From the NCBI GenBank assembly GCA_963659495.1, contig CAVKTH010000002.1:10712-74711 (forward strand): a stretch of 64,000 bases of DNA, in the 5' to 3' direction. Shown one piece after another: positions 4,508 through 55,691 of the stretch. This DNA is from Bacteroidaceae bacterium. Lineage in GTDB: Bacteria; Pseudomonadota; Alphaproteobacteria; RF32; CAG-239. Both the position numbers and the translations under genes were made by a program. Position 1 is the first letter of the stretch, and every line of letters begins with the position of its first letter. The notes beneath the pieces were generated by a model. The model worked only from the letters and a program-made list of their open reading frames with translations, had not been told where the DNA came from and did no database searches.

Positions 4508-4612
4508 CTCAAGGGTTTGGATGTTGTGTGTCAATACGCCGCACTTTTGGAACGTGGTGTACAAATAGTACATGAGTGAGAAAAGTGCAAGCAGAGACCT
4601 GACAGACAAGCC
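4508..4612 (+). repeat. 105-bp palindromic repeat element, copy B (intergenic, between the pilin-like gene and fba)
   Basis: Direct repeat of 3739-3845. This copy contains in-frame stops, so it is non-coding. Confidence 0.6.
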
Positions 4613-4621
4613 CTTATAAAA

Positions 4622-11638: not shown

Positions 11639-12613
11639 ATGAAAAGATTTATAATTTATACTTTATTTTGCTGTCTGGCAGCCTTAAATCCGGCTTTGGC
11701 TCAGCATATGGTGCAGAAACAGGGCTATTTAACCGAAGATTTGTATTACACCGGATTGCCCGACTATCCGCCTTTTTCCCAATATCTTACTGAAAAACAA
11801 GGAATTTATTCTTTAGAGAGCGCGTTTTTAAAACCTATAAAAGACATTGCTCAGAAATATGATTTTAAAATAAAAGACGAAGCCATGGTAGAAAGAGCAA
11901 GCCTGCAGACGGTAATTTTAGACATCCGCAGCGGCAAATCTCAAATATTTATCGGCGCTTATTCCGACACCAAGCTGTTTACCGGCATACATCTGATTTA
12001 TCCGGCCTCGGTTTCTAACCCTATTCATGTAATTACTCTGCCCGACGATCAGGAAAAAATAAAATCATCCAAAGACTTAGCCGCCTTAAGAGGCGTTATC
12101 AGCAAAACCGAATATGTCAGCGATTTTGTTTTAAGAAAAATAAAACCGCTGAATCTGACTTTTGCGGAAACGCCTTATGAAGCCTATGAAAAGCTGTTTA
12201 CCGGCGAGGCCGACTATATTCTGGGCGGGCTTTATTATAACCGCATTATGGCGAGCCGCTACGGAATTGAACAATATTTAGCATATTCTAAAAAACCGTT
12301 GTTCAAAATTCCGGTTTTTGTTGCACTTTCCAAAGTTATGCCTAAATTATCGCTTTATGATAAAATATTTTCGCAAGAATTTAACAAGCCTGAGTTCGGC
12401 AATGCCGTAAAAAAAGAAATTTTACGCATGGTAGAAGATGAAATTGCCAAAAATCAGGGAATTGTTCCGCCGGCTTTTGCCAAACAAGCAGCGCCGCAGA
12501 CCGAAGAAACCGAATTGCCGGCTGCAGATGCTCCGGGAGAAAACTCAGGCGGGCGCGTGCTGGAACAAAAAGTTGAACAAAAGTCTTTTGATGAAGTGTT
12601 GGATGGAATTTAG
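11639..12613 (+). CDS. Periplasmic solute-binding-like protein with a signal peptide
   Basis: Signal peptide MKRFIIYTLFCCLAALNPALA. The overall architecture resembles type 3 substrate-binding proteins. The C-terminus is Pro/Ala/Glu-rich. Confidence 0.4.
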   Translation: MKRFIIYTLFCCLAALNPALAQHMVQKQGYLTEDLYYTGLPDYPPFSQYLTEKQGIYSLESAFLKPIKDIAQKYDFKIKDEAMVERASLQTVILDIRSGKSQIFIGAYSDTKLFTGIHLIYPASVSNPIHVITLPDDQEKIKSSKDLAALRGVISKTEYVSDFVLRKIKPLNLTFAETPYEAYEKLFTGEADYILGGLYYNRIMASRYGIEQYLAYSKKPLFKIPVFVALSKVMPKLSLYDKIFSQEFNKPEFGNAVKKEILRMVEDEIAKNQGIVPPAFAKQAAPQTEETELPAADAPGENSGGRVLEQKVEQKSFDEVLDGI

Positions 12614-13294: not shown

Positions 13295-13753
13295 ATGCGA
13301 TACTTACTGCTGATATCATTAGTTTTTTTGGCTTCCTGCTCTTCTTGGGGCGGAAAAGGGCAGATTATTTATCATTGGGAAAGAGAGCGCACCGGCGTGC
13401 AGAAATTTTCCCGCGACCACTCAGAATGCCTGAAACAAGCCGAACCATGGTACCATTGGCCGGATTTCAGCAGCTGGTTTTATTCGGAAGAATACCGCTA
13501 TAATATTGTGGTAGACTGGCATAAGTCAAAAGGCATCTGGGCTAGCTATGTGCCGTACCGCGGCGCTTCTCCGCTGCTGGTAAATTCCATCCGCGACTCA
13601 GCCGATTCCGATCCTAAGGAATATCGTCTGTGCATGGAAGCTAAAGGCTACTGGCACAGAAAATATGACATTCCGACTGTAACCAACGTATTTGTTTATA
13701 ACCCGCAAAAAGGCACGGATTACGTTCCGCTGGAAAGCGTCTACAGCAAATAA
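13295..13753 (+). CDS. Hypothetical lipoprotein
   Basis: Lipobox MRYLLLISLVFLASCSS. The mature protein is Trp/Tyr-rich. Confidence 0.4.
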   Translation: MRYLLLISLVFLASCSSWGGKGQIIYHWERERTGVQKFSRDHSECLKQAEPWYHWPDFSSWFYSEEYRYNIVVDWHKSKGIWASYVPYRGASPLLVNSIRDSADSDPKEYRLCMEAKGYWHRKYDIPTVTNVFVYNPQKGTDYVPLESVYSK

Positions 13754-15129
13754 CCGCCGCCGCTGGCTTTGTAATAAGCTATCAGATTTTGGAAAATTCC
13801 GGCTTTGCTGTCTAAGCTGCTGTTTTGGGCTTGCAGGCGGTTCTGCTCCATAGTCAAAAAATCCGAAAACTCTATAAGCCCGCTGCGGTATTTTTCGGAA
13901 GACGCCGCCACAACCTTGTTCATATTTGCCAAAGCGCGGTTTTGCAGCCGGTTTCTTTTTAATTCGTTCTGCACGTTTGCCATGGCGTTTTTCAATTCGC
14001 CGACAGCAGTTAAAACCGTTTTTTTATACACAGCAAAAGCTTCCTGCTTTTGGTATTTTTGCTTATTTAACTGATTTTGCAGGCGGTTCCAATCTAAAAG
14101 GGGCAGGCTCAGCAGAGGCTCATAGCTATAGCCTTGGCTTTGGGAATTAAACAAACTATTGCCGCCGCTGGCCGCATATCCCCATAAAGCCGAAATACTG
14201 ACATTGGGATATAAATCGGCTACCGCTGCGCCGACTAAAGCATTTTGCGCCGCCAAGTTCTGCTCGGCCGCCGCCACATCCGGACGCTGCCGGATTACCG
14301 AAGCCGGAAGATTATACATGGCTTTGATATTATATTGATAGGCATTGCTGAAAATCGGCGAACGCTTCTCGGCATCCAGCCTCAGCTGCGACGGCAAAAC
14401 GCCGGATAAAACGGCTAAAGCATTTTTATATTGCTCTACTTGGCTCTGCAGCTGCGGTATCTGCGTTTCGGTTGAATTAAGCAAATACTCCGCCTGATTA
14501 TAAGCGATATCGTCGGTTAAGCCGCTTTGATATTTAGATTTTACCACACCGAAAATATCTCGCTGCAGAGCTAAATTCTGTTTGGCGATACGCAGCTTTT
14601 CAACTGCTAATTTCAAATTAACATAGTCCGAAGCGATTTCTGCCGCCACCACATTTTTAACCTGATTTAAGCTATATTCTTCGGCTTTCAGCATTGCGGC
14701 TGCAGCTTCATCCTGACGGCGTCCCTTGCCCCAAATATCCAGCTCCCAAGAAGCGTCAAAACCGGCATTATAATAATGCGTATCGGCTGTCGGTCCGATG
14801 TTTTTGCTGTTTTTCTGATAGTTATAGCCGCCGCGGGCGTTTATCTGCGGCAAAAATCCGGCTTGGCTGATTTTCAGCTCCGCCCGAGCCTGACGCAGTC
14901 TGGCTATAGCCTGTTCAATATCCGTGCTGTTTTTAAGCCCTTGCTCAATCAGTATATTAAGCTGTTCATCCCCGAACAAGGCATACCAGCTTTTAGAGGG
15001 CTGAGTTCCGTTTTTCAGCGCCAGTTCCTGCTTTATAACCGAATCATTATAAAGTGCAGGACGGCTGAAATCTTCGCCAACCGTACAAGCGGCGGCGGTA
15101 AAGCTCAATAATACAGCTAACTTACGCAT
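13741..15129 (-). CDS. RND efflux outer-membrane channel, NodT/OprM family lipoprotein
   Basis: Lipobox [10 protein letters not shown] and TolC-like duplicated coiled-coil repeats. The Met (MRKLAVLL) at 15129 is the likely start; the longer annotated ORF would overlap acrB. Confidence 0.8.
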
Positions 15130-18100
15130 TTTCGGCCTCCTTTTTTTGAGATTGCGGAGCAAAATGTTCTTTAAGATGTTCAAAAAAGGCAAACAACGCC
15201 GGAATAAAGATGATACCGATTAAAGTCGCCGCAATCATCCCGTAAAATACCGATGAACCGATAGCTATCTGCGAGCTTGCTCCGGCGCCGGTTGCCACAA
15301 TCATCGGGAACACGCCCAAAATAAAAGTAAACGCCGTCATTAAAACCGCACGGTAACGCTCTTCGGCTCCGCGGCGCGCCGCCTCGGTAATCGGCAGCCC
15401 CTGTTCGCGGTACATTTTGGTAAATTCCACAATCAAAATAGCATTTTTAGCCGCCAAGCCTATCAGCATAATCAAGCCCAGCTGCGCATAAATACTCAGC
15501 GACTGCCCCATGACCCACAAACCGGCTAAGGCGCCTAAAATGGCAAATACCGTAGAGAATATCACCGCCAAAGCCAGCAGCCAGCTTTCGTACAGCGCCA
15601 CCAAAAATAAATAGCAAAACACAACGGCCAAGCTGATGAGGATTACCGCCAGACCGCGGGTTTCCACCTCTTGCAGGCTCAGCCCCGTCCACCAGATATC
15701 ATATTCTTTAGGCAGAACTTTTTCCAGCTGCTCCAGCTTGTCCAAAGCCGTGCCGCTGCTGATACTGTCTTTTGACATAGCTGTAACAGATGCCGATGTA
15801 TATTGATTAAAACGATAGATTATTTTCGGCGAAAGCTCGGTTTTGACATCGGCAAAGCTGTTTATGCGCACCAGCTGCCCTTCGTTGGAACGGACGTACA
15901 AATTGCCGATATCTTCCAAATTCCGGCGGTATTGATAATCGGCCTGCAAAATAACCTTGTTTACCTGCCCGCTTAAAGTGATATTGTTAATATAGCGCGA
16001 GCCTAAATTATTCTGCAAAGCGGCAAACAAAGACGATACCGGAATCTTATAATATTCCAATTTTTTGCGGTCTATATCCAGATAAATATGCGGAGTTTCG
16101 GCGGTAAAGGTGCTGAAAGCATAGTCAAAATAGCCGCTTTTATTGACTGACTGCAGATATTCTGCCAGCTGCGAATACAGCTGCTGCGGCGATGTATTGC
16201 CGTTCATAGTCACAAATTCCAGAGAAATACCGTTGCTCTGCCCTACCCCCGGAATGGCCGGCGGAGCAAAAAAGTTTATAACCGCCTGCTTGTTACCGGC
16301 AAACTGACGGCGCAAATCTTGGCTTATGGCTTCTATAGACAAGTTTTTAGCCTTGCGTTTATCCCAATTTTCCAAACCAATCACACCCAGCGCCACATTT
16401 TCGCCGCTGCCGCCCAGCATACTGTAACCGGCAACCGATATAAAATATTTAACGCCTTTAGTCTGCAGAATCTTATCATTCATCTCACTTAAAACTTTAT
16501 TGGTTTCATTTATGCTTGCCGTATCCGCCAGCTGGATATTGCCGAAAATAATACCTTGGTCTTCTTCCGGCAGAAACGAGGTCGGAGTATAGGCAAACCC
16601 AGCCGCTATCAGCGCTATTGTTCCCAGCATGCACAGCAGCATGGTTTTCAGATGTTCCGAAAAATAAACCACCGATTTCAGATAATAGGCCTTGCTTTTA
16701 TCCAGCACCTTATCAAACCAAGCAAAAAAGCCGTGCGGCTCGCTGTTTTCGTCTCCGCGCAGAAATATTGCGCACAAAGCCGGACTCAGCGTCAGAGCAT
16801 TAAGCGCCGAAAAAGCAACCGCCGTAGCAATGGTTACAGCAAACTGCTGATAAATTTTGCCGGTAATCCCGGCCATTAAGCCTACCGGAATAAAAATAGC
16901 CAGCAGCACAAACGTGGTCGCCACAATGGCGCTGCTAATCTGCCGCATAGCCGTCAGCGACGCGGTTTTGGAATCTTGCTTTTGGTTCAGCATCAAATAC
17001 TGCACCCGCTCCACTACAATAATGGCGTCATCCACCACCAGACCAATCGCCAAAATCATGGCAAACAGCGTCAGAATGTTTATATTAAATCCCAGCAGAT
17101 ACACAACTATAAACGTGGCAATCAGAGAAACCGGAATTGTAAACAGCGGTATCAGCGTGGTTTTAAGCTTTTGCAAAAAGATATACGTTACCAGCACCAC
17201 CAATAAAAAAGTAATCAGCAGCGTATCTATAATACTTTGAATAGAAGCACGCACATACTCTGTAGAATCATACGCAACCTGCAAATCCATATCCTGCGGC
17301 AGAACTTCCGACAAATCGGCAATTTTCCGGCGCAGGTTATCCATAATCTGCAAAGAGTTGGAATTCGGCAGCTGATTGATAGCCATAATCAGCGCCGGAG
17401 CGTTATTATAGCCGGATTTAATGTTATAAGTATCGGCGCCCAATTCTACTGAAGCCACATCTTTAAGATATATCTGCGCGCCGTCGGCGCCTGAGGCCAC
17501 CACAATATTTTCAAAATCGGCAACGCTGTTAAGCAGGCCTTTAGCCGTCAGCGACAGCACAATTTTATTGTCTTTAGCGCTCGGCGCCGCACCGATACTG
17601 CCGACCGAAGCCTGTATGTTTTGGCTTTTTACGGCGTTCATCACATCACTGCTGTTCAGCCCCAGCGCATTAAGCTTATCCGAATTAAGCCAAATTCTCA
17701 TACTGTACTGCGGTCCGAAAATCTGAACTTCGCCTACGCCTTTGACTCGGGCCAGCGCGTTTTTTATGTTGGTATAAGCATAGTTGCTCAAAAATAAATC
17801 ATCATAAGAATGGTTAGGCGAGCGCAGCACCAGCAAGGCCAAAATATTCGGGTTTTGGGTTTTAACGCTGACGCCGTACTGATTAACTTCGTCCGGCAGC
17901 TCCGACATTACCTGCTGCAGGCGGTTCTGCACTTTTACCTGCGCTATATCGGCATCGGTGCCGATGTCAAAAGTCACGGTCAGCTCATATGAGCCGTTAT
18001 CATCGGATGATGAGGACATATAAAGCATATTCTCTACGCCGTTAACCTCGTTTTCTATCGGCACGGCAACCGTATCGGCCAAAACCTGAGAACCGGCACC

Positions 18101-18253
18101 GGAATAGGTTGTGGACACCACAATCTGCGGCGGAGTAATTTCCGGATATTGCGCCACCGGCAGCACCGCCAGCGACAGCAGGCCAAGGATTATCAGCACA
18201 ATAGAAAGCACAATCGCAAAACGCGGACGGTTAATAAAAAAGGCCGAAAACAT
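15122..18253 (-). CDS. RND multidrug efflux transporter (AcrB/MexB family)
   Basis: 1043 aa with 12 TM helices and two large periplasmic loops, and the characteristic AcrB N-terminus [24 protein letters not shown]. Confidence 0.9.
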
Positions 18254-18256
18254 AGT

Positions 18257-19381
18257 TTATTCCTCCTTTTGCGGTTGATTTTGAATTTGTACTTTCTGTC
18301 CCAGCAGCTGCGGTTCAATATCCTGTGTTATCAGGCTTTCGCCGCCGCTGAAATCATTTTTCAAAATAAAGCTGCCGCCGTCTTCCGCCAGAATCTGCAC
18401 CGGCTTTAAGATAATTTCGCCGTCTTTTACCGCATATACAAAATTGCTGTTATTTTTCATCTGCACCAAGTTTTTAGCAACCGAAACCGCGTTTTTATAG
18501 GTATGCTCCAGCAAAACTTTTACATAGGCATTAGGAATCAGCATTTTATCCGGATTTTCAAATTCAGCATAAACCGCCAAGGTATTTGTGCTTTTTTCTA
18601 TGGCGTTCTCGGTATAAATCACTTTGCCGGCAAAAGGATATTTTTTGCCGTCTGAAAGTATCAGGCGCACTTTATCGGCAAATAAGTCATGATTTTGCAA
18701 AAATTCTTTATCCGTTACCGAAAAAATCACACGCGCCGGATTATATTGCACAATACGCACCAAACTGGGATTCATTGACGGAGTGACAAAATCTCCGATT
18801 GCAATATTGATATTGCCTAAAACTCCGTCAAACGGCGCTTTTACTAAAGTATAATTCAAATTGATACGGGCGGTTTCCAAGTTTGCGGCAGCTTGCTTAG
18901 CCGCGGCTTCAGCCGTCAGAACCGCGGTTTTAGCGTTGTCTAATTCAGTCTGCGACACCGCTCTGGCTCCGGCTTTCTGCAAGCGGCTGTATTGATTCTG
19001 CGCATTCTGCAAATCCGCCGCCGCAGACAGAACCGCCGCATAGGCCGAATGCACAGCCGCTTTATATTCTTCCTGCCGCAGTACAATCAGAACGTCGCCG
19101 CGCTTTACCTGCTGCCCGCTGTCGGCCGGAATATCGGCGACATAGCCGCTTAAATACGGCAAAATATTAACACTGCGGATAGCCGCAACCCTGCCGATAA
19201 AATTTTTTGCAATGCTGATATCTTCTGCTTTCGGCAATTCTGCCGCAACCGATATTGTTTTTTCGGCTGCTTCCGGCTTTACGGACTGCGGACGGCTGTA
19301 AATATAAAACAATATGCCGCCGCCCGCGATTATCAGCAATAAAATTATAATCAGCCAATTTTTGAAAGTATCTTTTTTCAT
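18257..19381 (-). CDS. RND efflux membrane-fusion protein (AcrA/MexA/HlyD family)
   Basis: Single N-terminal TM helix, alpha-hairpin coiled coil, and lipoyl/beta-barrel motifs. An AGGAGG RBS lies before the MKKDTFKNW start. Confidence 0.8.
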   Translation of the reverse strand: MKKDTFKNWLIIILLLIIAGGGILFYIYSRPQSVKPEAAEKTISVAAELPKAEDISIAKNFIGRVAAIRSVNILPYLSGYVADIPADSGQQVKRGDVLIVLRQEEYKAAVHSAYAAVLSAAADLQNAQNQYSRLQKAGARAVSQTELDNAKTAVLTAEAAAKQAAANLETARINLNYTLVKAPFDGVLGNINIAIGDFVTPSMNPSLVRIVQYNPARVIFSVTDKEFLQNHDLFADKVRLILSDGKKYPFAGKVIYTENAIEKSTNTLAVYAEFENPDKMLIPNAYVKVLLEHTYKNAVSVAKNLVQMKNNSNFVYAVKDGEIILKPVQILAEDGGSFILKNDFSGGESLITQDIEPQLLGQKVQIQNQPQKEE

Positions 19382-19453
19382 AGCCGCCAAACCTCCTGAA
19401 TATGATAAGCCTGACTTTAGATATGCTGAAAAAAGCACTTTTCAAGAGAACGG

Positions 19454-21412: not shown

Positions 21413-21511
21413 TTTTAGCCTTTATTAAGTATCTTTATGTTATAATGTAGCTTAATGAGTCTTACTGTTAAATGCAAGTAAAGATTATGCAGATATTCAG
21501 GAGAAAAAAGT

Positions 21512-22510
21512 ATGTCTGATAGCAACGTTTTAGAAGATGATGATTTTGAAAAACTGTTAGACAGTTTTATTAACGACTCCATGAACGAAGTGGATAGCGA
21601 CACTCCGGCGGCAGAAAAAAGTAGCCCGCTGAAAAACAGCGAGCTTGCTCCAAGCAATGAAGAAGATGATGATGAAGATATAGAGCAGATTGACTATACA
21701 TCTGAACTCAGCCCTGAAGGACAAGCCGTTAATGAAACCATGTCGGATGAAGATTTGGATAAAATGCTGGTTTCTTCCCTGCAAGACGCCAAAGTTGAGG
21801 CACAGGAAACCCACGACCAGCCGATGCTGGGCAATGATGAATCGGAACTGGCTCAAGCCTTTTTGAACTTCTATAACTCCGTAAACAAGCTTTCTATGAC
21901 GCATTTGAACAAGCCTTATCAATGCTTGTTTGAAATTGACGACCTATATCCAAACTATAAACCGAGCATCGGCAAAATTCTGTCTGATGACGTGGTTGCC
22001 GGCTGGGTGCTTTTAACCAAAATGTTTCCGCAGGAAATCGGCAATTTTCCGCTTAACTCTTCAGATGAAGCCTTTTTGAACTTTGCCGAAAAGCTGACTG
22101 ACACCGATTTGCAGCTGGCCGTAATTTCTTATGTAGAAATTTTGATAGATATGGAGGGCTGCGAACTGACCTATCAGGCAAAATTCTTAAAATATCAGGA
22201 AAAGCAAATTAAACGCCTGATGTATGAAGAATATATGGAGCGTAAAGAAAGACAGCGTAAATTTACCGAAGCTTTAGCCGCCAAAAACTTTCCGGTAGAC
22301 GCCGACAAGCTTATCAGCAACTATTTCAGGGTTGCTCAAAAAGATGTTGACGGCGCATTTAAAGCTTTGACGACCAATCCGGCAATTTTTGCGCCGATTG
22401 ATTTCAGCAAAATCAAGCCGCGCTGGTTCGGGCTTTTAAAAGTTACGCCGAAAGACGGCATCCGCGTTAATTTGGAAATCGGTAACTTTTTGAAAAGACT
22501 CAAAGTTTAG
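21512..22510 (+). CDS. Hypothetical acidic protein; first gene of the T4CP-containing operon
   Basis: 332 aa. The N-terminal ~110 aa are Asp/Glu-rich and low-complexity (EEDDDEDIEQIDY), followed by a globular C-terminal domain. No recognised motif. Confidence 0.45.
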   Translation: MSDSNVLEDDDFEKLLDSFINDSMNEVDSDTPAAEKSSPLKNSELAPSNEEDDDEDIEQIDYTSELSPEGQAVNETMSDEDLDKMLVSSLQDAKVEAQETHDQPMLGNDESELAQAFLNFYNSVNKLSMTHLNKPYQCLFEIDDLYPNYKPSIGKILSDDVVAGWVLLTKMFPQEIGNFPLNSSDEAFLNFAEKLTDTDLQLAVISYVEILIDMEGCELTYQAKFLKYQEKQIKRLMYEEYMERKERQRKFTEALAAKNFPVDADKLISNYFRVAQKDVDGAFKALTTNPAIFAPIDFSKIKPRWFGLLKVTPKDGIRVNLEIGNFLKRLKV

Positions 22511-22521
22511 TTAAAAAATAA

Positions 22522-22550
22522 TAGACAAAAATCATTTTATATGGTATATT
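22522..22550 (+). promoter_or_regulatory. Sigma-70-like promoter TAGACA-N17-TATATT, upstream of 22583
   Basis: The -35 and -10 hexamers have 17-nt spacing. A GGAG RBS sits 8 nt before the ATG. Confidence 0.4.
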
Positions 22551-22582
22551 GGCATTAAAGATTAAAAAAAGGAGTATTACTC

Positions 22583-24595
22583 ATGGCAAAAGATGTTCAA
22601 GCGGCTAGAGCAGCAACAGAATTTATGAAAGCGATTGAAAATAAAGAGTCTGACGACAAACTAAAAGCTATTCTGGGAAAAAATCCCAAGCTTTTGGAAT
22701 CTAAAGAGTTTGCTAAAAGAGTTTTCCCTAAAGTCGGCGGCAAAAAGAACATGGGTCTGGTTAGATTGGACAAAATGGTTGAAACCGTTAAAAGAGTAAA
22801 AGGACTTGCCGACAACGGAGCAATTAAGCCGGAACAGCTCAGTTCCTTTTTAGAATTAAAACAGCCGATGACCGGCGAAACTTTTGCCACTTTTACGGCC
22901 AAGCAAGCCGTTGCCGCCTGCGACAAAGCCAATACCGAACGTCCGGAATTGCCGGAAGCTGACCGAAATGTCTTTAAGCAGCATCAAACAGCTTATACTG
23001 CTCAGCTGGAAGAATTAAAAACCTTGGGCGTATCTATGGAAGCCGACCGCGAGGGCTTGACGGTTGAAGAAATTTCCAAAGCCGGAAACATCAAAGATGA
23101 AGACGGCAACTCTCCGGCTATCAGCGGAAAACCGCTATTCAAAGCCCAAACTACTGAGAATCAGCAAAGCCAGACCGACCAAGCAGCGCTGCAGGTAAAT
23201 GTAGCAGCAAATGAAGAGGGGCTGGAAGTCGGCGGCGAAGAAAAAGAGGCCTTAAAAGTTAAAGTTGCTGAAAAACCGGTAAAAGTTAATGTTCAGCCTA
23301 AGAAAAAAGAAGAAGAGGAAGATATTAACGAAGCAACGGTTGAAGACGCTCCGGAAGACGATAAAAGCAAAAATAATTATCAGGGCGACAAAATCGGAGA
23401 ACGAGATATTATTGACTATATGTACAATGAATGGTTCTTGGCCGCGGCAAGCGCGGGACTTAACTATCTTGTAAGCAAAGCCTGCGACGGCGTGGACTAT
23501 TTGTGCGACAAAAGCGACCGCCGGATGAAAAAAGCCCAAAAAGAAAAAGAAGAAAAGAAACAGGAAAAAGTCAGCGACTTCAAAAAGAACGGCGAATACT
23601 TGCTGGGCGGTGCTGTTACCAGCCTGAAAGACGGCTATGCCGCCTCTAAAAACCAAAGATTTGCCATGTGGAAAGACATTAACGATAACCTAGGCAAAGA
23701 CCCGCAGACATGGACAGCTTTTGACCCTACCAAGCCGAAAGATAAAAAATTTATTGATATGGTAAATCAAGAATATAAACAAAATCCGCAGGCCTGCATG
23801 GATAAAGTCAAAACCACTATCAAAAATTATGACAAGACCGAAAAATTTGCCGCTACCGTTTACGGCTTAGGCGTTGAAATGGCTGCAGTTGAAATGGCTT
23901 ATGAGGGAATGGATAACGGCCGTTTAACCCGCGCTGCAAAGTTTAAATGGAATCTCGGCGATTTAACTGCGGCGGATATTGATAAAAAACTAAGCAAAAA
24001 AGCTACTGAAAAAGCTAAAGAAATCCAAGAAACCCTTGAAAACGCTAATTTAGCGATAGAGCTTAAATCGGCAAGAGAGGGGATTACCGATAAAGAAGCG
24101 ATTAAAGCCAAACAAGCAGAATTCACAGCAGCTTATTTAGGTAAATTGGCTCAGCAAACCATTGACTGCAAAACCAATCTGGCAAATGATTTGGAAAAAG
24201 GCAACTTTAACTATGCCCGCTACGGCAAAAATGACAAAATGCTGGACAGCGGCGTGTCTAATGAAACCATTAAGAGTTATAAAAACATGCAGAAATTATC
24301 AAATCTTGACAAGCTCGGCGATGCAATATTGGCCAAAACCCATAAGCAAATTGTTTCTTACGACCTGAAATCAGACGCTAAAGAACGTTTTTCGCCGTCG
24401 GCTCTGGACGGAATCAACAGCCAGTTCAGCCAGACCATGGCAAGCAACAAATACTCGCAGGAGCAAAACCAGTCCCGCAAAGAAAAATTGTCGCAATGGA
24501 AAGAAAAAGTTCTGAACAGCAACAAATTTGAAAAGGTTATGGATAACAGCAACCATGTGTTCAATCAAATTCTGGTTCAATCGCGGAGCCGCTAA
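22583..24595 (+). CDS. Hypothetical 670-aa Lys/Glu-rich protein
   Basis: Good RBS. No recognisable domain. Long predicted helical and charged segments. Confidence 0.5.
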   Translation: MAKDVQAARAATEFMKAIENKESDDKLKAILGKNPKLLESKEFAKRVFPKVGGKKNMGLVRLDKMVETVKRVKGLADNGAIKPEQLSSFLELKQPMTGETFATFTAKQAVAACDKANTERPELPEADRNVFKQHQTAYTAQLEELKTLGVSMEADREGLTVEEISKAGNIKDEDGNSPAISGKPLFKAQTTENQQSQTDQAALQVNVAANEEGLEVGGEEKEALKVKVAEKPVKVNVQPKKKEEEEDINEATVEDAPEDDKSKNNYQGDKIGERDIIDYMYNEWFLAAASAGLNYLVSKACDGVDYLCDKSDRRMKKAQKEKEEKKQEKVSDFKKNGEYLLGGAVTSLKDGYAASKNQRFAMWKDINDNLGKDPQTWTAFDPTKPKDKKFIDMVNQEYKQNPQACMDKVKTTIKNYDKTEKFAATVYGLGVEMAAVEMAYEGMDNGRLTRAAKFKWNLGDLTAADIDKKLSKKATEKAKEIQETLENANLAIELKSAREGITDKEAIKAKQAEFTAAYLGKLAQQTIDCKTNLANDLEKGNFNYARYGKNDKMLDSGVSNETIKSYKNMQKLSNLDKLGDAILAKTHKQIVSYDLKSDAKERFSPSALDGINSQFSQTMASNKYSQEQNQSRKEKLSQWKEKVLNSNKFEKVMDNSNHVFNQILVQSRSR

Positions 24596-24597
24596 AA

Positions 24598-25086
24598 ATG
24601 GTTAAAAAAAGTCTTCATTACCTTTGCGTGCTGATTGCCGGCGCTTTATGGAGCGCAGCTCTGCTGCTGCTGTATTGGCAGGTATTTTTGTTTTGCTATC
24701 AGATAAACATTCTTTCGCTGCACACCTATGCTTCTATCCGCAACTACTGGAATGACGGCGGCGTGCTGAAATCCGGCGATATCTTTATGCTTTTGGGCAT
24801 ATTCTCCTATCTGCCGATAGTTCTGCTGGGCTGGAGAGTGCTGGCAAAATACAAATACATGAATCTGATTATGAAACCGCTCAGCTGGTTTGCCAACCGC
24901 GGACTGGATAAATATAGCGGCGGAATGCCTGAAGTAAACATCAAAAACCTGAAAATTGAGGAGAAAAAGACCATAGAACAACTGGTGCAAGAACGTATTG
25001 AGCTGGAAAATAAAAAGAATCCGCAGGCTAATTCGGCCGAATTCCGTAAAGAAATTGTTGAAAAGATAGAAAATGAAATCAATTAA
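24598..25086 (+). CDS. Hypothetical membrane protein (two TM helices plus a charged coiled tail)
   Basis: Its N-terminal topology, including a Trp-rich GW motif, resembles the next ORF. Starts 3 nt after the preceding stop. Confidence 0.45.
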   Translation: MVKKSLHYLCVLIAGALWSAALLLLYWQVFLFCYQINILSLHTYASIRNYWNDGGVLKSGDIFMLLGIFSYLPIVLLGWRVLAKYKYMNLIMKPLSWFANRGLDKYSGGMPEVNIKNLKIEEKKTIEQLVQERIELENKKNPQANSAEFRKEIVEKIENEIN

Positions 25087-25140
25087 CACTCTCTTTATAA
25101 ATTTGTTTTATACTGACAAGAAAAAAATGGAGTAAGACGG

Positions 25141-26637
25141 GTGAAATCCTTAATTGTCTTTGCAAGAATACTTATCGTGGGGTGCCTATGGAGCATAGTC
25201 TTCATAGAGGGCATCCGCGTGATTATGCTCTGCAACTGGCATTTTGATATTTTTTGGCCCGACCATTGGCGCCAAGCTTACGCGCTTTGGAAAGCGGGCT
25301 GGGTTATCCGCGCGCCGAAAGAATGGGCTTTTGTGATTATTCTCGTAACCTTTTTCCCTATGCTTATTACCGGCTGGTGGACGCTGTGCATGGTGGCTTG
25401 GGAACGCATTATTTATGATATTATAACATCGCCGCTGGCTTTGTACCGCCGCCTGATTAAAACTCCGCTTAACGTTATGAAAACAAACAACAAATACGGC
25501 GTAGTAAAGAGAAAATCATATAAACAAATCAGACCGGCGGGAGTGGGCTTCAGAATGCCGATTTCCGATTATGCCGACAACAAATCGGCGGCTCCGGTAA
25601 CGGCAGGCGTCGGCGGCAGTGCGGTTTTGCCGTCTCAGGTACGGCCTACCGCGGCTCCGGCAGCTCCGGCTGCGGCTAAAACCGCTAAAAAAACTGATAT
25701 TCCGTCAGCTATAGACCATGCGCTGTTCAAATTTGACGATGACGACGATGATTTTGATTTAGACATAGATTCTTTTGAAAAAGCCGATATTCTAAAGAAA
25801 AAAGAACCGGCAAAAGCTAAAAAGCCGGTCTTTGATGACGAGGATGATGAAGAAGACAATATTCCGCCGCGTAAAAATAAGCGCGACACGGATAATAGCT
25901 CTAAGCGTGCGGCTAAAAAGCCGATTTTTGACGATGATGAAGATGAAGAGGACGAAGATTTCCAGCCGCGCAGCAACAATCGCCGCAATAAAAATGACCG
26001 CAGCAGCGATAACAGCGGCAAAGACCAGCGGCAGAAAAATAAACAAAACCGCGATGACTCCCGCGGCGACAAGCCAAACCGCAATAACAAGCAAAACAAC
26101 AGCGGCGCTGACGATGATTCCGGCGAAAACAGCACGCCGCGCAGTCCGGTTTATGACAGCCTGCAGCAAAAAGGCTATGATGTTATTGCCGGCGTAAATG
26201 TCAACAATACGCTTATAGACTTTGTCGGCGTTTCGGATACGGAAATCTGCCTGTGCTTGGTGGATAAAGAAAACGGCGACTGGCTGGCTGATGAAGAATT
26301 GTTTAACGGCGAAGAGCCGCTTTGGTTTTCTGAAAACAGCCACAGAATTTCACCGGTGCGCAAATTAGATGTTGCACGCAATATAATTCGTGATAAACTG
26401 GCGGAAGAAGATTTTGAACAAGAAATCAAATCGTATGTGGTTGTACAGATGGCTAACATCATCAACGCCGATGATATGTTTGAAATTTGGAACAAAATGG
26501 ATATTGAAGTAACCCGCATCAACCGCGGCGCGCCTAAAGAAATTCATTTGTTTTCTAAATCTCTGGATGATGCCGACGGACAAATTGACCGCAAAGAACT
26601 CAACCGCCTGCGCAAGATTTTAAAAAGTATTAAGTAG
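25141..26637 (+). CDS. Hypothetical membrane protein with a highly charged low-complexity linker
   Basis: N-terminal TM helices, then DDDDDDFDLD and KKPVFDDEDDEEDN / KKPIFDDDEDEEDED tandem repeats, then a globular C-terminal domain. Its position immediately upstream of the T4CP suggests a DotM/IcmP-like partner. Confidence 0.45.
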   Translation: MKSLIVFARILIVGCLWSIVFIEGIRVIMLCNWHFDIFWPDHWRQAYALWKAGWVIRAPKEWAFVIILVTFFPMLITGWWTLCMVAWERIIYDIITSPLALYRRLIKTPLNVMKTNNKYGVVKRKSYKQIRPAGVGFRMPISDYADNKSAAPVTAGVGGSAVLPSQVRPTAAPAAPAAAKTAKKTDIPSAIDHALFKFDDDDDDFDLDIDSFEKADILKKKEPAKAKKPVFDDEDDEEDNIPPRKNKRDTDNSSKRAAKKPIFDDDEDEEDEDFQPRSNNRRNKNDRSSDNSGKDQRQKNKQNRDDSRGDKPNRNNKQNNSGADDDSGENSTPRSPVYDSLQQKGYDVIAGVNVNNTLIDFVGVSDTEICLCLVDKENGDWLADEELFNGEEPLWFSENSHRISPVRKLDVARNIIRDKLAEEDFEQEIKSYVVVQMANIINADDMFEIWNKMDIEVTRINRGAPKEIHLFSKSLDDADGQIDRKELNRLRKILKSIK

Positions 26638-26645
26638 AGGATAAA

Positions 26646-28862
26646 ATGGCACTAAAAGAACGTGGAGAAGAATGGAAAGAATATGACAGCGCCGTCCGCT
26701 GGATGATGATTACTTTTCTTATTTGTCTGGGCTTAACGATTTTCCTCTTTATTTTTGCCCTGCCTTTGTCATATTTGGTCGGTCACGGCGTTTCTAAAGC
26801 CTCTTTTGAGATGATAAATAAGTTTTTGGCCACGATTGTAGACAATCCCGGACATTTATGGGCTATGTACCTGAAATGGTTTAAGCAGCTCATCCGCTAC
26901 AACGGCTCTTTTTCGCTCAGCTTATGGCTGCCGCTGCTGCCGTTTATCACTATTCCGGTGGGTTTGATTGTCGGTGCTTTGCTCAGTCCGTATAAATTCC
27001 AAGTCAACACCCAAGGTTCGGCGCGAATCGCCGAATTACGCGACATTAACAAGATGGCTTTGCTCGGATTTGACGGTTTCTGTCAGGTTGTGGGCAAATT
27101 CAAAGGTCGCTTTTTAATGCTGAAAGAAACCTTGGCCACCCTGTGCTGCGCTCCTCCGGGTACCGGTAAAACCGCCGGCGTGGTTATTCCGACAATTTTT
27201 AACTCGGCCAAGCTGAGCATTATTGTAAACGACCCGAAACCGGAGCTTTGCTATTCTACCAGCGGCGCCCGCGCCAAAGTAGGTCCGGTGTTTATCATCA
27301 ACTGGGGTGCCGAAGATAACCCGAGCGAGGGTATTTATTACCCAAGCTGGAATCCGCTGTCGCCGAACTCCATGCCGGAAGCCGGTCCGGACCGCGATAT
27401 GTATGTGGATTCTATGTGCAATATTTTGGTGGAAGACCCTAAGGGCGGCGCAGACCCGCACTGGGCTAACACCGGCCGTGCCGCACTAACCGGCTTTATT
27501 AACTTTGTGGCCTCTAAATGCGACCGCGCCCGCGCCAATGACTATTTTATCGGGCGTATTTATGAGGGCAAGCTGGACGCCAAAGATAAAGAGATTTTGG
27601 AGGGCTATTATATGGAGATGCGCGATCCGGCGGCTCCGCGCGCCATTCAAAACCTGAAAAACGGCACTTTAACTATGGAAAACTATCTGCCTATCGGTAC
27701 TTGGAACCTGCTGCCGTCGCGCTGGATGGGACGCGAAGCCTGCATTGCCATGATTATGGAATGGATTACCGAAGCGCAGATTAACGCCGCTCAAGAAATT
27801 CAGCGCCGTATGGACGAGGGCGATCAAATGGCGGCCATGGCCGACCCGACGCATGATATGCTGGAAGAAGCCGTGAAAGAAGCCCGCAACTTTGGTTATT
27901 CGCAGCGCTGTATCACAGAATTAAGCTCACTCAGCAGTATGCCGGATAAGGAGCGCGGCTCTGTGCTTTCTACCGCTTTTGCCGGTATCGGCTGCTTTAA
28001 GAACCAAGCCGTAAAAGCCCGCACCAGCTTTTCGGATATTCAGTTCCGCGACTTGCGCGGTATGAAAGATCCGGTTACCGGCGAATGGAAACCGATTTCG
28101 GTTTATTTGTCCGTAAACCAAGTAGATGCGCGCGCTTTGGGCGTTATCAGCAGTACGTTTATTGAGCTTATGTCGTCCTACCTGATTTCTAACCCGCCTA
28201 ACCACGTTAATAAAACCGACGGTAAAATGGGACCTTTCCCGACATTGTTCATTCTGGACGAGTTCCCGCAAATGCCGAAAATGAAAGCTATTATTGACGG
28301 TCCGGCCGTAGGCCGCGGTCAGAAAGTGTCATATTTGCTGATTGGACAAGACTTAGGACAAATCTCCGGCAAATATGGTAAAGATGACTTGGAAACGGTG
28401 ATCTCTACCACCGCCTGCAAGATTATTCTTTCACAAAACAACGAGGTTACAGCTCAGCGCTTTTCTAAGATGATCGGCAACAAGACCGTACAGGTTTCGT
28501 CATTCAGCCGAACAGAGGGCAGCTTGGGCAAGGACTTTAACCCGCTGGCTAAGAATGTTAACTATCAAATGCAGGGCGTGCCGGTTATCAGCGCTACTCA
28601 GCTGCTGAGCTTGCCGTTGCTGAAGCAAGTTATCTTGATGCAAAGTTACATTGACCGCCCGATTATGGCAGATTCGCCGCGTTATTATCTTGACCCGAAA
28701 ATGCGTAAGTTGGCTAAGCTTCCGCCTTGCCCGAATGTTCCGGATTGGATTGTGGCGCAGCGTGAAGACATCAACGACGACATGCTGGCTAAGCTCGGAA
28801 TTGAGTATAATCCTGACGAAGAAGATAATGACAGCTTTGAGGCGGATACACCGCAAGCATAA
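26646..28862 (+). CDS. Type IV secretion coupling protein (VirD4/TraG/DotL family)
   Basis: 738 aa with N-terminal TM helices, Walker A CCAPPGTGKTAGVVIPT and Walker B LFILDEFPQMPKM. The acidic C-terminal tail ends ...NPDEEDNDSFEADTPQA. Confidence 0.85.
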   Translation: MALKERGEEWKEYDSAVRWMMITFLICLGLTIFLFIFALPLSYLVGHGVSKASFEMINKFLATIVDNPGHLWAMYLKWFKQLIRYNGSFSLSLWLPLLPFITIPVGLIVGALLSPYKFQVNTQGSARIAELRDINKMALLGFDGFCQVVGKFKGRFLMLKETLATLCCAPPGTGKTAGVVIPTIFNSAKLSIIVNDPKPELCYSTSGARAKVGPVFIINWGAEDNPSEGIYYPSWNPLSPNSMPEAGPDRDMYVDSMCNILVEDPKGGADPHWANTGRAALTGFINFVASKCDRARANDYFIGRIYEGKLDAKDKEILEGYYMEMRDPAAPRAIQNLKNGTLTMENYLPIGTWNLLPSRWMGREACIAMIMEWITEAQINAAQEIQRRMDEGDQMAAMADPTHDMLEEAVKEARNFGYSQRCITELSSLSSMPDKERGSVLSTAFAGIGCFKNQAVKARTSFSDIQFRDLRGMKDPVTGEWKPISVYLSVNQVDARALGVISSTFIELMSSYLISNPPNHVNKTDGKMGPFPTLFILDEFPQMPKMKAIIDGPAVGRGQKVSYLLIGQDLGQISGKYGKDDLETVISTTACKIILSQNNEVTAQRFSKMIGNKTVQVSSFSRTEGSLGKDFNPLAKNVNYQMQGVPVISATQLLSLPLLKQVILMQSYIDRPIMADSPRYYLDPKMRKLAKLPPCPNVPDWIVAQREDINDDMLAKLGIEYNPDEEDNDSFEADTPQA

Positions 28863-28877
28863 GTTACTGATTTTGCA

Positions 28878-28912
28878 AACCGTCGTTTATCAGCGGCGGT
28901 TTTTACTTTTTT
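28878..28912 (+). terminator. Intrinsic terminator after the T4CP gene
   Basis: aaaccgtcgtttatcagcggcggttttt forms the stem accgtcg/cggcggt (one G·U wobble) followed by a T-run. Confidence 0.5.
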
Positions 28913-28918
28913 ATGTAT

Positions 28919-29041
28919 TTTGAAAAAAGAAATTGCCGATAAATTGAAAATTGCCGAGGGAACAGTTAAATCAAGACTGTTTAACGCACGCAAAATATTA
29001 GCTCAAAAATTAAGTTTTTTAAGGGAGAATAATCATGAATA
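28919..29041 (+). pseudogene. Remnant of an ECF sigma-factor gene (region 4 only)
   Basis: Translates LKKEIADKLKIAEGTVKSRLFNARKILAQKL, which matches the sigma-70 region 4.2 helix-turn-helix of RpoE-like ECF sigma factors. No regions 2 or 3 are present upstream; the T4CP terminator lies there instead. Confidence 0.45.
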
Positions 29042-40921: not shown

Positions 40922-42859
40922 TTATCTGCCGCCGCGAGCCGCCAGCTGCCTCTGCAGCATTGGATTTTGCTGATTGCCCTGCTGAATAGCCTGCCGGCAT
41001 TTTTGCAAATCCGCTGCCGGAATATCCGGCAATTTCTGTAGCGCTGAAAAATCTTTAGGAACCGCCCCTTTCATCTGACGGTTATTATTAACACACGCAA
41101 CATACAATTTCAAGGCTTGTTCTTTAGTCAGCGTATCTTTAAAAATGACCGGCTTGTTTTTATTGCTCGGCTCCTGCAGCAATTTCACATACATATCATA
41201 TTCCGCGTCTTTAGCAACCTGAACTTTATCCTTTGCCGTATAGCGGATTTTATTTTGCTTTATGCTGAAAGCATACTCCTGCTCGGTATCGGCAATCTCT
41301 TTATAGCCGTCAAGCTTGCTCCAATATTTTTTAAGCTCTTTATTCCAAGAACACGGCTTTTGCGGCACCACATGAGGTTTCTGAGGATTGGCAGGCTGTT
41401 TTTCTGCTTCGGCCAATTCCGATATTTCCATGCCGTTAATATTGTTAATCAGCCGGTTTTTATGCAGATTGCCACGCATCAGCGCTTTAGCTTCATCCAC
41501 TAAATCCGGATTAACTAATCCACGGCTTCTGTCGCGGTTAAATTCAGCCAGACGGCGCGACAAATCATGCCGGCACGGCTCTATAATGTTACTGATATTC
41601 TCCGGCGTAAGCTCAACTTCCTGCGATTTATCAATTAACGGAGTCAAATTTTTTGCTTCATAAGCTCCGGTCTGCGGATTATAGAGCTGAAAGCGATACA
41701 GCAGCGAACGGCGCTTAAAAAATTCTGTCCGGTCAGTATCTTCGGCTGCACTTAAAGGCACAAGCTGGATTTCTAATTTCATATTCCGCAGAAACTGTTT
41801 TTTATCATAGCTGCGGCGATGATTTTTTGCAAATGACGCAAACGCCGAATCCAGCAAATTCTTAGGATTCTGCACATATTCAAAACGCTTGTTTTCCGGC
41901 ATATTACGCATTGCCAGCAAAAGCTGAGAAGATTCTCCGTCAAACATGCTGAAATCTTTAGGATTGCCTTTTTTCAAATAAGCGTTTGCCGCATTAAAAA
42001 CCTGTGACAAATAGGCGCTGCGTTCATCTTCTACCTGCAGGCGGTAATAATCCTCCACCGAAAGGCGTTTTGCGCCGTCCTTCAGACAATATCCGGTTTG
42101 CAGCACCGTATTTTTAACATGCGTCAGCTCATGCTTCAGCATTAAAAGCTGCTTTGCCACTTTAACCTGTTCATCCGAATAAATTTTATATAAGCTTTTT
42201 TCTTTTGCATCCGGAAAAATTTCATCAATCCGGCTATGCGGATTTATCTGCCTTGCATGCTCAGCGCGGGCAATCAGCTGCTTTAAAGTACTATAATCAC
42301 TCGGCGAAAACTTAAAATGATTGCGGACAAAGCTTACACGCTTCTCGCCGACATTAACAGAGGCGCGGCGCTGCTCAAAATCTTTAACCGCATATTCCTG
42401 CTTAACGCGGTCATAATATACATCATAAACATTATCCTGCGGCTCAATCTTATAGCCCAGATTTTTAATCAGCGGCGGAATCTCCGCATCGTCAATCCGG
42501 TTATCAAAGTGCAAGGTATTTGCGGCAGAAGCAATATGCGGCGGATAGTTATTTTCTTTCAGTCCGTTTTTATATCCTGCCGGATTTTTCATAAAATCAT
42601 AATGAGCTATCTCTTTGGCTAAAAACTCTGTATTTTTAGTATCTACAGCTTTTAAAATTTCTTTTTCCAAGGCTGAACCGCATTGCAAAGTAGCGGCAAA
42701 ATTATTATATTTATCAAAAAATTCTTTATAGGTAATCTGCTCGCAAAGCTGCTGATATTGCAGCATTTTTCTTTGCTTTTCCGCTTCATTGCCATAGTTC
42801 AGGGCAATGGCGACCACATGATTATCTGCTGTTGTCAGCAATAAAGTTTCTTTTGACAT
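40922..42859 (-). CDS. Hypothetical 645-aa protein with a single HExxH motif (KHELTHVKN)
   Basis: No recognisable family. The HELTH motif could mark a zinc metalloprotease-like core. Candidate secreted effector. Confidence 0.4.
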   Translation of the reverse strand: MSKETLLLTTADNHVVAIALNYGNEAEKQRKMLQYQQLCEQITYKEFFDKYNNFAATLQCGSALEKEILKAVDTKNTEFLAKEIAHYDFMKNPAGYKNGLKENNYPPHIASAANTLHFDNRIDDAEIPPLIKNLGYKIEPQDNVYDVYYDRVKQEYAVKDFEQRRASVNVGEKRVSFVRNHFKFSPSDYSTLKQLIARAEHARQINPHSRIDEIFPDAKEKSLYKIYSDEQVKVAKQLLMLKHELTHVKNTVLQTGYCLKDGAKRLSVEDYYRLQVEDERSAYLSQVFNAANAYLKKGNPKDFSMFDGESSQLLLAMRNMPENKRFEYVQNPKNLLDSAFASFAKNHRRSYDKKQFLRNMKLEIQLVPLSAAEDTDRTEFFKRRSLLYRFQLYNPQTGAYEAKNLTPLIDKSQEVELTPENISNIIEPCRHDLSRRLAEFNRDRSRGLVNPDLVDEAKALMRGNLHKNRLINNINGMEISELAEAEKQPANPQKPHVVPQKPCSWNKELKKYWSKLDGYKEIADTEQEYAFSIKQNKIRYTAKDKVQVAKDAEYDMYVKLLQEPSNKNKPVIFKDTLTKEQALKLYVACVNNNRQMKGAVPKDFSALQKLPDIPAADLQKCRQAIQQGNQQNPMLQRQLAARGGR

Positions 42860-49963: not shown

Positions 49964-50141
49964 TTTTTCCTCTAACTACTTATTTTTACAATAATCACAG
50001 CTTAATATAACAAGCAAATAGTAAAAATTTTGCATAAATTTTGCACTTTTATAAAAAAATACATTGATTTTTAAGATCATATCTGTATGTTGTTATATGA
50101 AATTTGTTGCTGATATTGTCGGTTAATGAATTTTTACCGTT

Positions 50142-50216: not shown

Positions 50217-50225
50217 TTTCCTAAA

Positions 50226-55683: not shown

Positions 55684-55691
55684 CATAATAA

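Follow-up and report, generated by a model that had tools for sequence, protein, structure and literature searches.

The 64-kb stretch of contig CAVKTH010000002.1 analyzed here, which we call the window and to which all coordinates refer as a whole, carries a five-gene operon that ends in the gene of a type IV coupling protein (T4CP). The genes are named A to E in operon order (Table 1). All five open reading frames (ORFs) were confirmed on the + strand where an earlier reading of the same letters, the original prediction, had placed them, and each is preceded by a ribosome-binding site of the GGAG type. For gene A, the GGAG lies 8 nt upstream of the ATG, in a divergent spacer whose + strand showed no strong sigma-70 match. 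The intergenic gaps measure 72, 2, 54 and 8 nt, so that two of the four junctions are 10 nt or shorter, not three as originally counted. A promoter-like site is present in the gap between A and B, at 22522-22550. The G+C content of the operon is not atypical.

Table 1. Coordinates of the operon genes and of the elements that border them in the window
Feature	Position	Strand	Size	Remarks and basis
Divergent spacer between rluD (- strand) and gene A, presumed promoter region	21413..21511	+	99 nt	AT-rich; promoter inferred
Gene A, acidic soluble protein	21512..22510	+	332 aa	ORF list, conservation
Gene B, Lys/Glu-rich soluble protein	22583..24595	+	670 aa	ORF list; position always filled by an ORF
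Gene C, predicted inner-membrane protein with two hydrophobic segments	24598..25086	+	162 aa	Putative truncated paralogue of D
Gene D, predicted membrane protein	25141..26637	+	498 aa	GTG start; alignment, AlphaFold2 model
Gene E, predicted VirD4/TraG-class T4CP	26646..28862	+	738 aa	Pfam, NCBIfam
Intrinsic-terminator-like hairpin and T-run closing the operon	28877..28912	+		Hairpin 28877-28902, 11-bp stem, 4-nt loop

Coupling protein E

The product of gene E matches the Pfam families T4SS-DNA_transf (1.9e-56, 192.3 bits, cut-off 20.1), TraG-D_C (1.7e-22, 80.1 bits, cut-off 22) and TrwB_AAD_bind (5e-17, 62.2 bits, cut-off 20.5); the T4CP class was tested against PF02534 and PF12696. In NCBIfam, only models of the VirD4/TraG/TraD type were matched, led by a CD1115-type VirD4-like model, VirD4 PRK13897 and IncP TraG. 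All scores fall below the equivalog cut-offs (at best 138 versus 250 bits, and 123 versus 728 for VirD4 PRK13897), and E lies outside the named NCBIfam equivalogs VirD4, IncP TraG, Ti TraG, F TraD and SXT TraD. The nearest annotated relatives are 33% identical over the full length. They are encoded on Erythrobacter and Sphingosinicella plasmids, as the last genes of virB2-virB11 clusters that are accompanied by MobA/MobL relaxases.

Judged from the family models and these nearest relatives, E is assigned to the VirD4/TraG (type IVA) class of coupling proteins and not to DotL. Of the original assignment to a VirD4/TraG/DotL family, the VirD4/TraG part thus stands and the DotL part does not. The restriction of matches to VirD4/TraG/TraD models, combined with terminal virD4 genes as relatives at 33% identity, indicates that E is a separate, deep branch of the type IVA class.

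Two N-terminal hydrophobic windows (residues 15-50 and 89-116) are predicted to form two transmembrane (TM) helices. The Walker A motif APPGTGKT (residues 169-176; 27150-27173) and the Walker B motif LFILDEFP (residues 534-541; 28245-28268) are invariant in 166 orthologues, and the gene is intact in all 166 loci, encoding 668-788 aa. A conserved C-terminal motif, VPDWIVAQREDINDDMLAKLGI (28737-28802), is followed by the acidic tail that had been noticed originally, which is variable in sequence and contains Phe (28803-28859). No solved structure was matched by E, even when a family profile was used, and therefore no structural assignment to TrwB, DotL or VirD4 is made. A reading of the protein as part of a defence system was rejected, the only PADLOC match being to 'mad8' at 0.0035.

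Membrane proteins C and D

C has TM-like windows at residues 5-39 and 59-83. The similarity of its N-terminus to that of D, which the original prediction had described, was confirmed as a shared two-TM domain: BLASTP aligned the two domains at 1e-4, the hidden Markov model (HMM) of the C family matched D at 1.6e-42 and the D HMM matched C at 2e-7. In second-tier loci, a more distant group described below, C is a protein of 371 aa with a D-like C-terminal domain (e.g., locus L117). We regard C and D as paralogous two-TM proteins, of which C is truncated.

Invariant columns of D were identified in an alignment of 25 sequences (A1). The two-TM domain is extremely conserved and includes a Trp/His-rich loop, NWHFDIFWPDHW (25234-25269). 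A basic juxtamembrane segment is found at 25486-25536, and according to the positive-inside rule the remainder of D is therefore predicted to be cytoplasmic. Further elements are an invariant acidic/aromatic motif, IDHALFKFDDDDDDFDLDIDSFEK (25711-25782), the low-complexity D/E/K/R linker that had already been singled out (residues ~146-334, variable in length) and a C-terminal alpha/beta NERD-like domain (26143-26634). Additional ORFs of 166, 183 and 121 aa lie inside the linker, at 25635-26343 (- strand) and 25832-26197 (+ strand); these antisense and alternative-frame ORFs most likely arise as artefacts because the coding sequence is repetitive and rich in GA/AG.

An AlphaFold2 model of D, usable only for the TM and C-terminal parts, contains helices at residues 2-105, a disordered stretch at 107-332 and an alpha-beta-beta-beta-alpha-beta domain at 335-498, with a predicted local distance difference test score (pLDDT) of ~70-90. 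Against Pfam NERD, D scored 16.7 bits (E = 0.011), below the cut-off of 22.1, and among 120 listed D homologues the NERD family (PF08378) is precomputed on four. The original prediction had pointed to DotM; in a Foldseek search of the model against PDB no DotM was found, and the matches of best probability were instead the PD-(D/E)xK nucleases BstEII, N.BspD6I and the R2 RLE domain, all of them weak (E 0.07-0.3, probability up to 0.91). Neither D360 nor D375 varies. When D is aligned manually to the NERD motif, the position of the catalytic lysine is occupied by the invariant E377 (D375-K376-E377, VDKE), which makes nuclease activity doubtful. The C-terminal domain is probably a NERD-like nuclease fold in degenerate form.

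Soluble proteins A and B

The descriptions of A as acidic and of B as Lys/Glu-rich in the original prediction are correct. A has an isoelectric point of 4.39 and no TM segment. In an alignment of 51 sequences (A5), an N-terminal acidic/aromatic peptide, DDDFEKLLDSFIND (residues 9-22), is followed by a variable acidic spacer and by a conserved helical C-terminal domain (residues ~105-332), which ends in the basic tail IGNFLKRLKV. The last 30 residues have a net charge of +3 to +9 in 63 orthologues. The identity of A across loci ranges from 35 to 98%, and the protein was undetected in a few sub-lineages. A structure model from the single sequence reached a pLDDT of 37 and was unusable. In a lineage at 76% identity (L005-L007), a 96-aa ORF overlaps the start of gene A (4596-4886 of these loci); it has no Pfam match, and no counterpart was called in the window.

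B contains 16.7% K+R and 16.1% D+E and is hypervariable apart from one conserved patch of 20 residues, ERDIIDYMYNEWFLAAASAG (residues 273-292). Its identity is 46% in a genome in which E is 97% identical, and in more distant genomes it often becomes undetectable. The position is always filled by an ORF, with lengths of 377-816 aa across 108 loci, and the C-terminal 30 residues of the product are always net-positive (median +3).

None of the proteins A-D has a significant family match in Pfam, NCBIfam or PADLOC, apart from the sub-threshold NERD match of D, and the possibility raised originally that these upstream genes encode conserved housekeeping families is not borne out. Searches of PDB with profiles of A, C and D, and with phmmer for B, gave low-complexity noise only. 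Homology of A-D to DotM or IcmSW was rejected at the sequence level, since the Pfam, NCBIfam, PADLOC and PDB searches were empty except for the weak NERD similarity. A and D had no tblastn match on 72,556 plasmids, which suggests that they are lineage-specific chromosomal partners of the T4CP and not conjugation accessories.

Distribution and conservation of the operon

With E as the query, 1772 homologues were found at E<=1e-10, the best 120 of which are 75-95% identical. A scan of one genome per GTDB species, using a profile from an 8-sequence alignment, detected relatives in at least 586 species genomes. The best 80 loci are all close relatives and all derive from uncultured Alphaproteobacteria that live in the guts of humans, ruminants, chickens and other hosts, Candidatus Scatocola faecigallinarum among them; the organisms are named unclassified Alphaproteobacteria or Rhodospirillales incertae sedis.

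The gene order A<C<D<E is kept in 102 of the 124 related loci with enough upstream sequence, and in 145 of 148 loci, the second tier included, fewer than 200 nt separate the end of D from E. These counts bear out the original picture of a conserved module centered on a T4CP, with a membrane partner directly upstream and acidic proteins alongside. A metagenome scan yielded the second-tier T4CPs, which share 53-65% identity with E; each of them is immediately preceded by a D-like gene. In this tier the module consists of C-D-E, A being only partly detectable and B absent.

The upstream flank of the operon in the window is divergent and consists of an RND efflux pump, rpoH and rluD. For the 50 most distant first-tier loci, tblastn detected rpoH in 46 and rluD in 48, and rpoH-rluD was positioned just upstream of A wherever gene calls or coordinates were seen. 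The downstream flank, formed in the window by an LTXXQ/Spy-like gene, dnaE, parAB, gidAB and mnmE, varies among loci, and the dnaE/parAB neighborhood is not conserved.

The proteins of the region evolve at very different rates. In the same 50 loci, the median identity to the window is 75% for E, 74% for RpoH and 64% for RluD, with partner medians of 43% for A, 41% for D, 26% for C and 24% or undetectable for B. In the middle tier, the medians are 86% for E, 80% for RpoH and 77% for DnaE. The conservation of E matches that of sigma-32 and exceeds that of DnaE; E is a core gene under very strong constraint that is accompanied by faster-evolving partners. Gene order and distribution indicate that the T4CP operon is chromosomal and vertically inherited.

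The region directly 3' of the T4CP gene has features of its own. A gene pair, F and G, is present there in 61 and 55 related loci, respectively (e.g., L117 12304-13788 and L044 12244-13312), and absent from the window. F encodes a protein of 200-370 aa whose N-terminus is rich in Pro and Gln and whose C-terminal part carries the conserved motif ENFNxHxRxPFDYGG..F.NLxLIxTHPxHxxIH, and G encodes ~144 aa with a weak SUKH_6 match (E 0.04). Neither had a significant match in Pfam or PDB profile searches. We presume that the F motif recalls an HNH-type nuclease toxin, with G as the paired SUKH immunity protein, although the Pfam and PDB searches gave no support for this. Immediately 3' of the operon terminator, a stretch of ~750 bp that other strains of the same species have is missing from the window, as it is from L004 and L010. 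This stretch (12219-12969 in L001/L003, compared with 28863-29034 of the window) comprises an ORF of 84 aa and the greater part of a gene for an ECF sigma factor, of which the window retains only a 3' remnant, encoding ...EIADKLKIAEGTVKSRLFNARKILAQKL.

Channel genes in related genomes

Family scans and tblastn with a VirB set identified no VirB or Dot protein, relaxase or integrase among the 50 ORFs of at least 150 aa in the window. Its other secretion-related genes are confined to those of an efflux pump of the RND/TolC type (13741-19438) and of an autotransporter of type V (58246-63279). The original statement that no other secretion components are nearby therefore holds for the window, but it is misleading for the lineage. 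Related metagenome-assembled genomes (MAGs), assigned to the same lineage by source names, habitat and G+C and not by a shared marker gene, carry genes for the channel of a type IV secretion system (T4SS).

Five look-ups (L170-L178) gave a conserved chromosomal cluster with the order virB8-virB7-virB8-virB9-virB10-virB11. Ahead of the first virB8 come surA-folD, or DEAD-box and esterase genes, and then genes for 6-8 signal-peptide proteins without known family. The gene at the virB7 position encodes a lipoprotein of 58-66 aa with the lipobox LxACG. VirB10 of the lineage is giant, with 1598-2430 aa and internally repeated 'Bflower'-like segments, and VirB9 has a C-terminal peptidoglycan-binding SPOR domain (e.g., in L171 11685-18176 and L117 836-2359). 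In none of these clusters is virB11 followed by a T4CP gene; unrelated genes are found instead. In Rickettsia typhi, the islet order is rvhB9-I, rvhB8-II, rvhB7, rvhB8-I, rvhB9-II, rvhB10, rvhB11 and rvhD4 (PMC4676284). Compared with this published order, the cluster of the lineage corresponds to the segment from rvhB8-II to rvhB11 with D4 missing. The simplest reading of this correspondence is that the T4CP gene of the lineage left the islet and now resides in the A-E operon.

No virB gene was found within 10 kb of the T4CP gene in 165 of 166 loci. The exception is L117, the contig of which contains a gene for VirB9 (CagX plus SPOR), two VirB8 genes with a lipoprotein gene (58 aa) between them, and the start of a giant VirB10. 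Their distance is ~3.6 kb to C and ~5.9 kb to the T4CP gene, with three or four genes of housekeeping type in between (for a DEAD-box helicase, an esterase and an alpha/beta hydrolase). A search with the L117 VirB9 returned 1944 homologues, counted as clusters, in three identity bands, with source names such as 'MAG: Alphaproteobacteria bacterium'. This number is of the same order as that of the T4CP homologues, and the source names are the same.

The virB loci and the T4CP loci were also compared by tblastx, and the only recurring housekeeping gene they share encodes an ABC exporter (50-69% identical between loci). The gene lies immediately 3' of virB11 in L173 (20090-21731), immediately 3' of the T4CP gene in L025 (12020-13429) and near the T4CP gene in L050 (1784-3196), L117 (14952-16739) and L120. 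The shared exporter may be a footprint of an ancestral virB11-virD4 neighborhood, which we consider a hint and not proof.

Other features of the window

The sole tRNA gene of the window, for tRNA-Thr (50142-50216), is 21 kb from the operon and adjoins a stretch of low G+C (0.35-0.39) at 50100-55700. This stretch contains genes for an ankyrin-repeat protein (51449-53143, - strand) and an EF-hand protein (54297-55103, - strand). The autotransporter gene mentioned above (58246-63279, + strand) encodes 1677 aa and is followed by a gene for a Fic-domain protein (63299-63907, + strand). Ankyrin-repeat, EF-hand and Fic proteins are typical classes of T4SS effectors, and it is possible that these three proteins and the autotransporter, all eukaryote-like and of an effector type, are T4SS substrates or host-interaction factors. 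ORFs without a family match occur at 47855-49963 (-), 40922-42859 (-), 3313-4452 (+), 11639-12613 (+) and 50423-51346 (-); one of the unmatched ORFs encodes 702 aa and gave only sub-threshold, apolipoprotein- and DUF948-like helical-repeat matches.

Comparison with known secretion systems

E shares its domains, two TM helices, Walker A and B motifs and acidic C-terminal region with T4CPs of the VirD4/RvhD4 type, such as Agrobacterium tumefaciens VirD4, IncP TraG and RvhD4. Like RvhD4, it is chromosomal, vertically inherited and highly conserved. It differs from these proteins in being encoded in an operon of its own with four genes of no known family and not after virB11, in scoring far below the equivalog cut-offs, and in being only 33% identical to the nearest plasmid T4CP.

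The resemblance to the rvh islet concerns the related MAGs, from which the cluster is known, and not the genome of the window. Their clusters share the order VirB8-lipoprotein-VirB8-VirB9-VirB10-VirB11 with its duplicated VirB8, and likewise lie on the chromosome with housekeeping genes on either side, the T4SS genes being distributed among several loci. Unlike in the rvh islet, D4 is missing and is found elsewhere together with A-D; VirB10 is of giant size (1600-2430 aa), and a SPOR domain is present in VirB9. The hosts also differ, being named Rhodospirillales or unclassified Alphaproteobacteria and not Rickettsiales.

To the Legionella complex of DotL, DotM, DotN, IcmS/IcmW, LvgA and DotY/Z there is a likeness in concept only, namely that a T4CP is co-encoded with a membrane partner directly upstream and with acidic soluble proteins, which could broaden the range of substrates recognized. 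E is of the VirD4/TraG class, the channel genes are of the VirB type, and A-D have no sequence or profile similarity to PDB chains. The modeled C-terminal domain of D has the same alpha-beta-beta-beta-alpha-beta order as NERD and PD-(D/E)xK domains, to which its matches are weak (E 0.01-0.3), but it is distinguished by Glu in place of Lys (DKE), the two-TM anchor, the acidic linker and the partnership with a T4CP. We know of no described NERD protein in the role of a T4CP partner. The F-G pair that follows the T4CP gene in ~60 loci, and is absent from the window, is loosely reminiscent of the effector/immunity pairs of the Xanthomonas VirD4-XVIPCD system; no homology was detected.

Function of the operon and alternative explanations

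We consider it probable that the operon encodes the coupling-protein module, i.e., the substrate receptor or gate, of a chromosomal, vertically inherited P-type (VirB/VirD4, type IVA) T4SS whose channel genes are located elsewhere. The likely hosts of such a system would be uncultured gut and rumen Alphaproteobacteria, with a scattered gene layout much like that of rvh in the Rickettsiales. In favor of this proposal are the class and the conservation of E, the constancy of its partner D, the virB clusters without T4CP in related MAGs, the rvh-like order of these clusters, the L117 contig and the effector-type proteins of the window. Several observations weigh against it. The operon and the virB cluster were not placed together in the genome of the window or in any first-tier MAG, and all but one of the 166 loci are devoid of virB genes within 10 kb of the T4CP gene. 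The sole physical link, L117, belongs to a second-tier lineage (T4CP identity 59%, 54% G+C), and in a species that shares 85% DNA identity with it across 7.6 kb of adjoining sequence, synteny stops precisely at the boundary with C-D-E. The lineage's virB4, virB2/3 and virB6 genes were not located. Roles for A-D are deduced from topology, charge motifs and conservation, and contacts among A-E are likewise presumed. Furthermore, it is unusual for a T4CP to be conserved more strongly than DnaE, which could be a sign of some other role, central to the cell.

Such a role would be that of an inner-membrane translocase of nucleic acid or protein that operates independently of a T4SS, with an FtsK/HerA-like hexamer of E acting together with D, C, A and B in DNA handling, uptake, export or quality control. 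The housekeeping-level conservation of E, at least equal to that of RpoH, and the scarcity of adjoining virB genes would fit this explanation, as would the NERD/PD-(D/E)xK-like domain of its constant partner D and the position of the operon in the window among the replication and segregation genes dnaE, parAB and gidAB. That neighborhood is not conserved, however, and the Glu at the catalytic Lys position in the manual alignment suggests a non-catalytic domain. A T4CP alone is not known to cross the outer membrane of a diderm, and a stand-alone translocase would leave unexplained why a VirB8-B11 cluster without T4CP occurs in MAGs assigned to the same lineage; the joining of a virB cluster and C-D-E on the L117 contig is also at odds with it. 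We consider this explanation improbable. Another possibility is compatible with the T4SS proposal as a variant: only C-D-E would form the coupling complex, and A-B would be a chaperone-effector pair co-transcribed with the T4CP. B diverges extremely fast, with one 20-residue patch kept, it has a net-positive C-terminus, as VirB/D4 substrates often do, and acidic A is encoded immediately upstream. The reduction of the second-tier module to C-D-E and the promoter-like site ahead of B are in agreement with such a pair. On the other hand, A is large for a secretion chaperone at 332 aa and has a conserved basic C-terminal tail of its own, and no effector-like domain was found in B with Pfam, NCBIfam or PDB, so that we regard this variant as possible but rather unlikely.

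The two remaining explanations concern the origin of the module. A remnant of an integrative conjugative element (ICE) or plasmid would consist of a TraG-type T4CP left after decay, with relaxase and oriT just outside the window. Its appeal lies in the nearest annotated T4CPs, which are on plasmids with MobA/MobL relaxases, and in the lack of structural genes in the window. However, the same chromosomal position recurs (rpoH in 46 and rluD in 48 of 50 loci), at least 586 species have a relative, each of the 166 orthologues is intact, and purifying selection on E is stronger than on DnaE. The 64-kb window contains no integrase or relaxase, its only tRNA gene is 21 kb away and the G+C is not atypical, and A and D are absent from all 72,556 plasmids searched. 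The recurring rpoH-rluD synteny, the wide distribution and the rate pattern in our view rule out an ICE or plasmid remnant, to which we give next to no probability; the original prediction had also preferred another origin. It had suggested a likeness to the type IVB system, which as an explanation would mean true homologues of DotL, DotM and IcmS/IcmW/LvgA-like adaptors. The gene order, with a membrane protein directly upstream and acidic proteins nearby, does resemble icmP(dotM)-icmO(dotL), and E has a C-terminal extension. But E matches VirD4/TraG/TraD-type models only, the T4SS genes found in the lineage are those for VirB8/9/10/11, and A-D show no Pfam or PDB profile similarity, the D domain being probably a restriction-endonuclease-like alpha/beta fold, which makes homology to the Legionella complex very improbable. 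A functional analogy to the DotL-DotM-adaptor complex is possible with homology unsupported, and the phrase 'novel substrate-recruitment module' of the original prediction is reasonable as an analogy of this kind.

Proposed mode of action

In the T4SS proposal, E would form a hexamer in the inner membrane that docks on the VirB channel and gates substrates into it. C and D would share the topology of the T4CP anchor, with the N-terminus inside, two TM helices and the C-terminus inside, and could pack around the TM ring of E. They would thereby hold the cytoplasmic elements of D at the channel entrance, i.e., the basic juxtamembrane stretch, the acidic-aromatic peptide, the flexible charged spacer and the probably non-catalytic nuclease-fold domain, as a platform for substrates or adaptors. 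A, with its acidic-aromatic N-terminal peptide and basic tail, may serve as an adaptor or chaperone, and B may be either a fast-evolving receptor subunit or the first translocated, co-expressed substrate.

The acidic-aromatic peptides in the tail of E, in the motif of D and at the N-terminus of A could be interchangeable docking ligands for a basic site. The docking of the acidic tail of F-plasmid TraD on TraM and the recognition of Glu-rich signals by DotM are parallels for such a mechanism; the acidic Phe-containing peptides of E, D and A could dock in the way of the TraD tail, to which no homology was detected. The ankyrin-repeat, EF-hand and Fic proteins of the window would be plausible substrates. 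RvhD4 binds the C-terminal tails of effectors, and rickettsial rvh effectors include ankyrin proteins that bind RvhD4 through such tails (PMC11077975).

Implications

Coupling proteins decide what type IV secretion exports. To our knowledge, almost nothing is known beyond Legionella about accessory subunits that widen the substrate range of a T4CP. A literature search found no paper that links RF32/CAG-239 gut Alphaproteobacteria to a T4SS or that describes the A-E operon. What is new here is a predicted VirD4-class T4CP, apparently relocated from an rvh-like P-type T4SS, that now has a fixed place in an operon alongside four proteins without family assignment, as well as an rvh-like arrangement of channel genes apparently outside the Rickettsiales.

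As a tentative extension, with the odds somewhat against it, an abundant, uncultured order-level clade of gut and rumen Alphaproteobacteria may have independently evolved a multi-subunit coupling complex on a P-type, rvh-like T4SS. The complex would comprise a VirD4-class ATPase in permanent association with a paralogous two-TM pair, an acidic adaptor and a hypervariable subunit or substrate. With the same reserve, one of the two-TM paralogues might present a degenerate nuclease-fold domain and an invariant acidic-aromatic docking peptide, and the whole would be a non-homologous counterpart of DotL-DotM-IcmSW. If so, the sigma-32-like conservation of the T4CP would imply that the way of life of these 'commensals' revolves around T4SS delivery to host cells, gut protists or rival bacteria.

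Should the module instead function independently of a T4SS, it would represent a T4CP-based machine of a new type. If the T4SS proposal is confirmed, the operon would offer a tractable model of T4CP accessory proteins, with a nuclease-fold membrane partner and acidic-aromatic docking peptides, and a comparative handle on the origin of scattered T4SSs of the rvh type. It would also mean that a widespread, unstudied gut lineage depends on a T4SS, for which the ankyrin-repeat, EF-hand and Fic proteins of the window would be candidate effectors.

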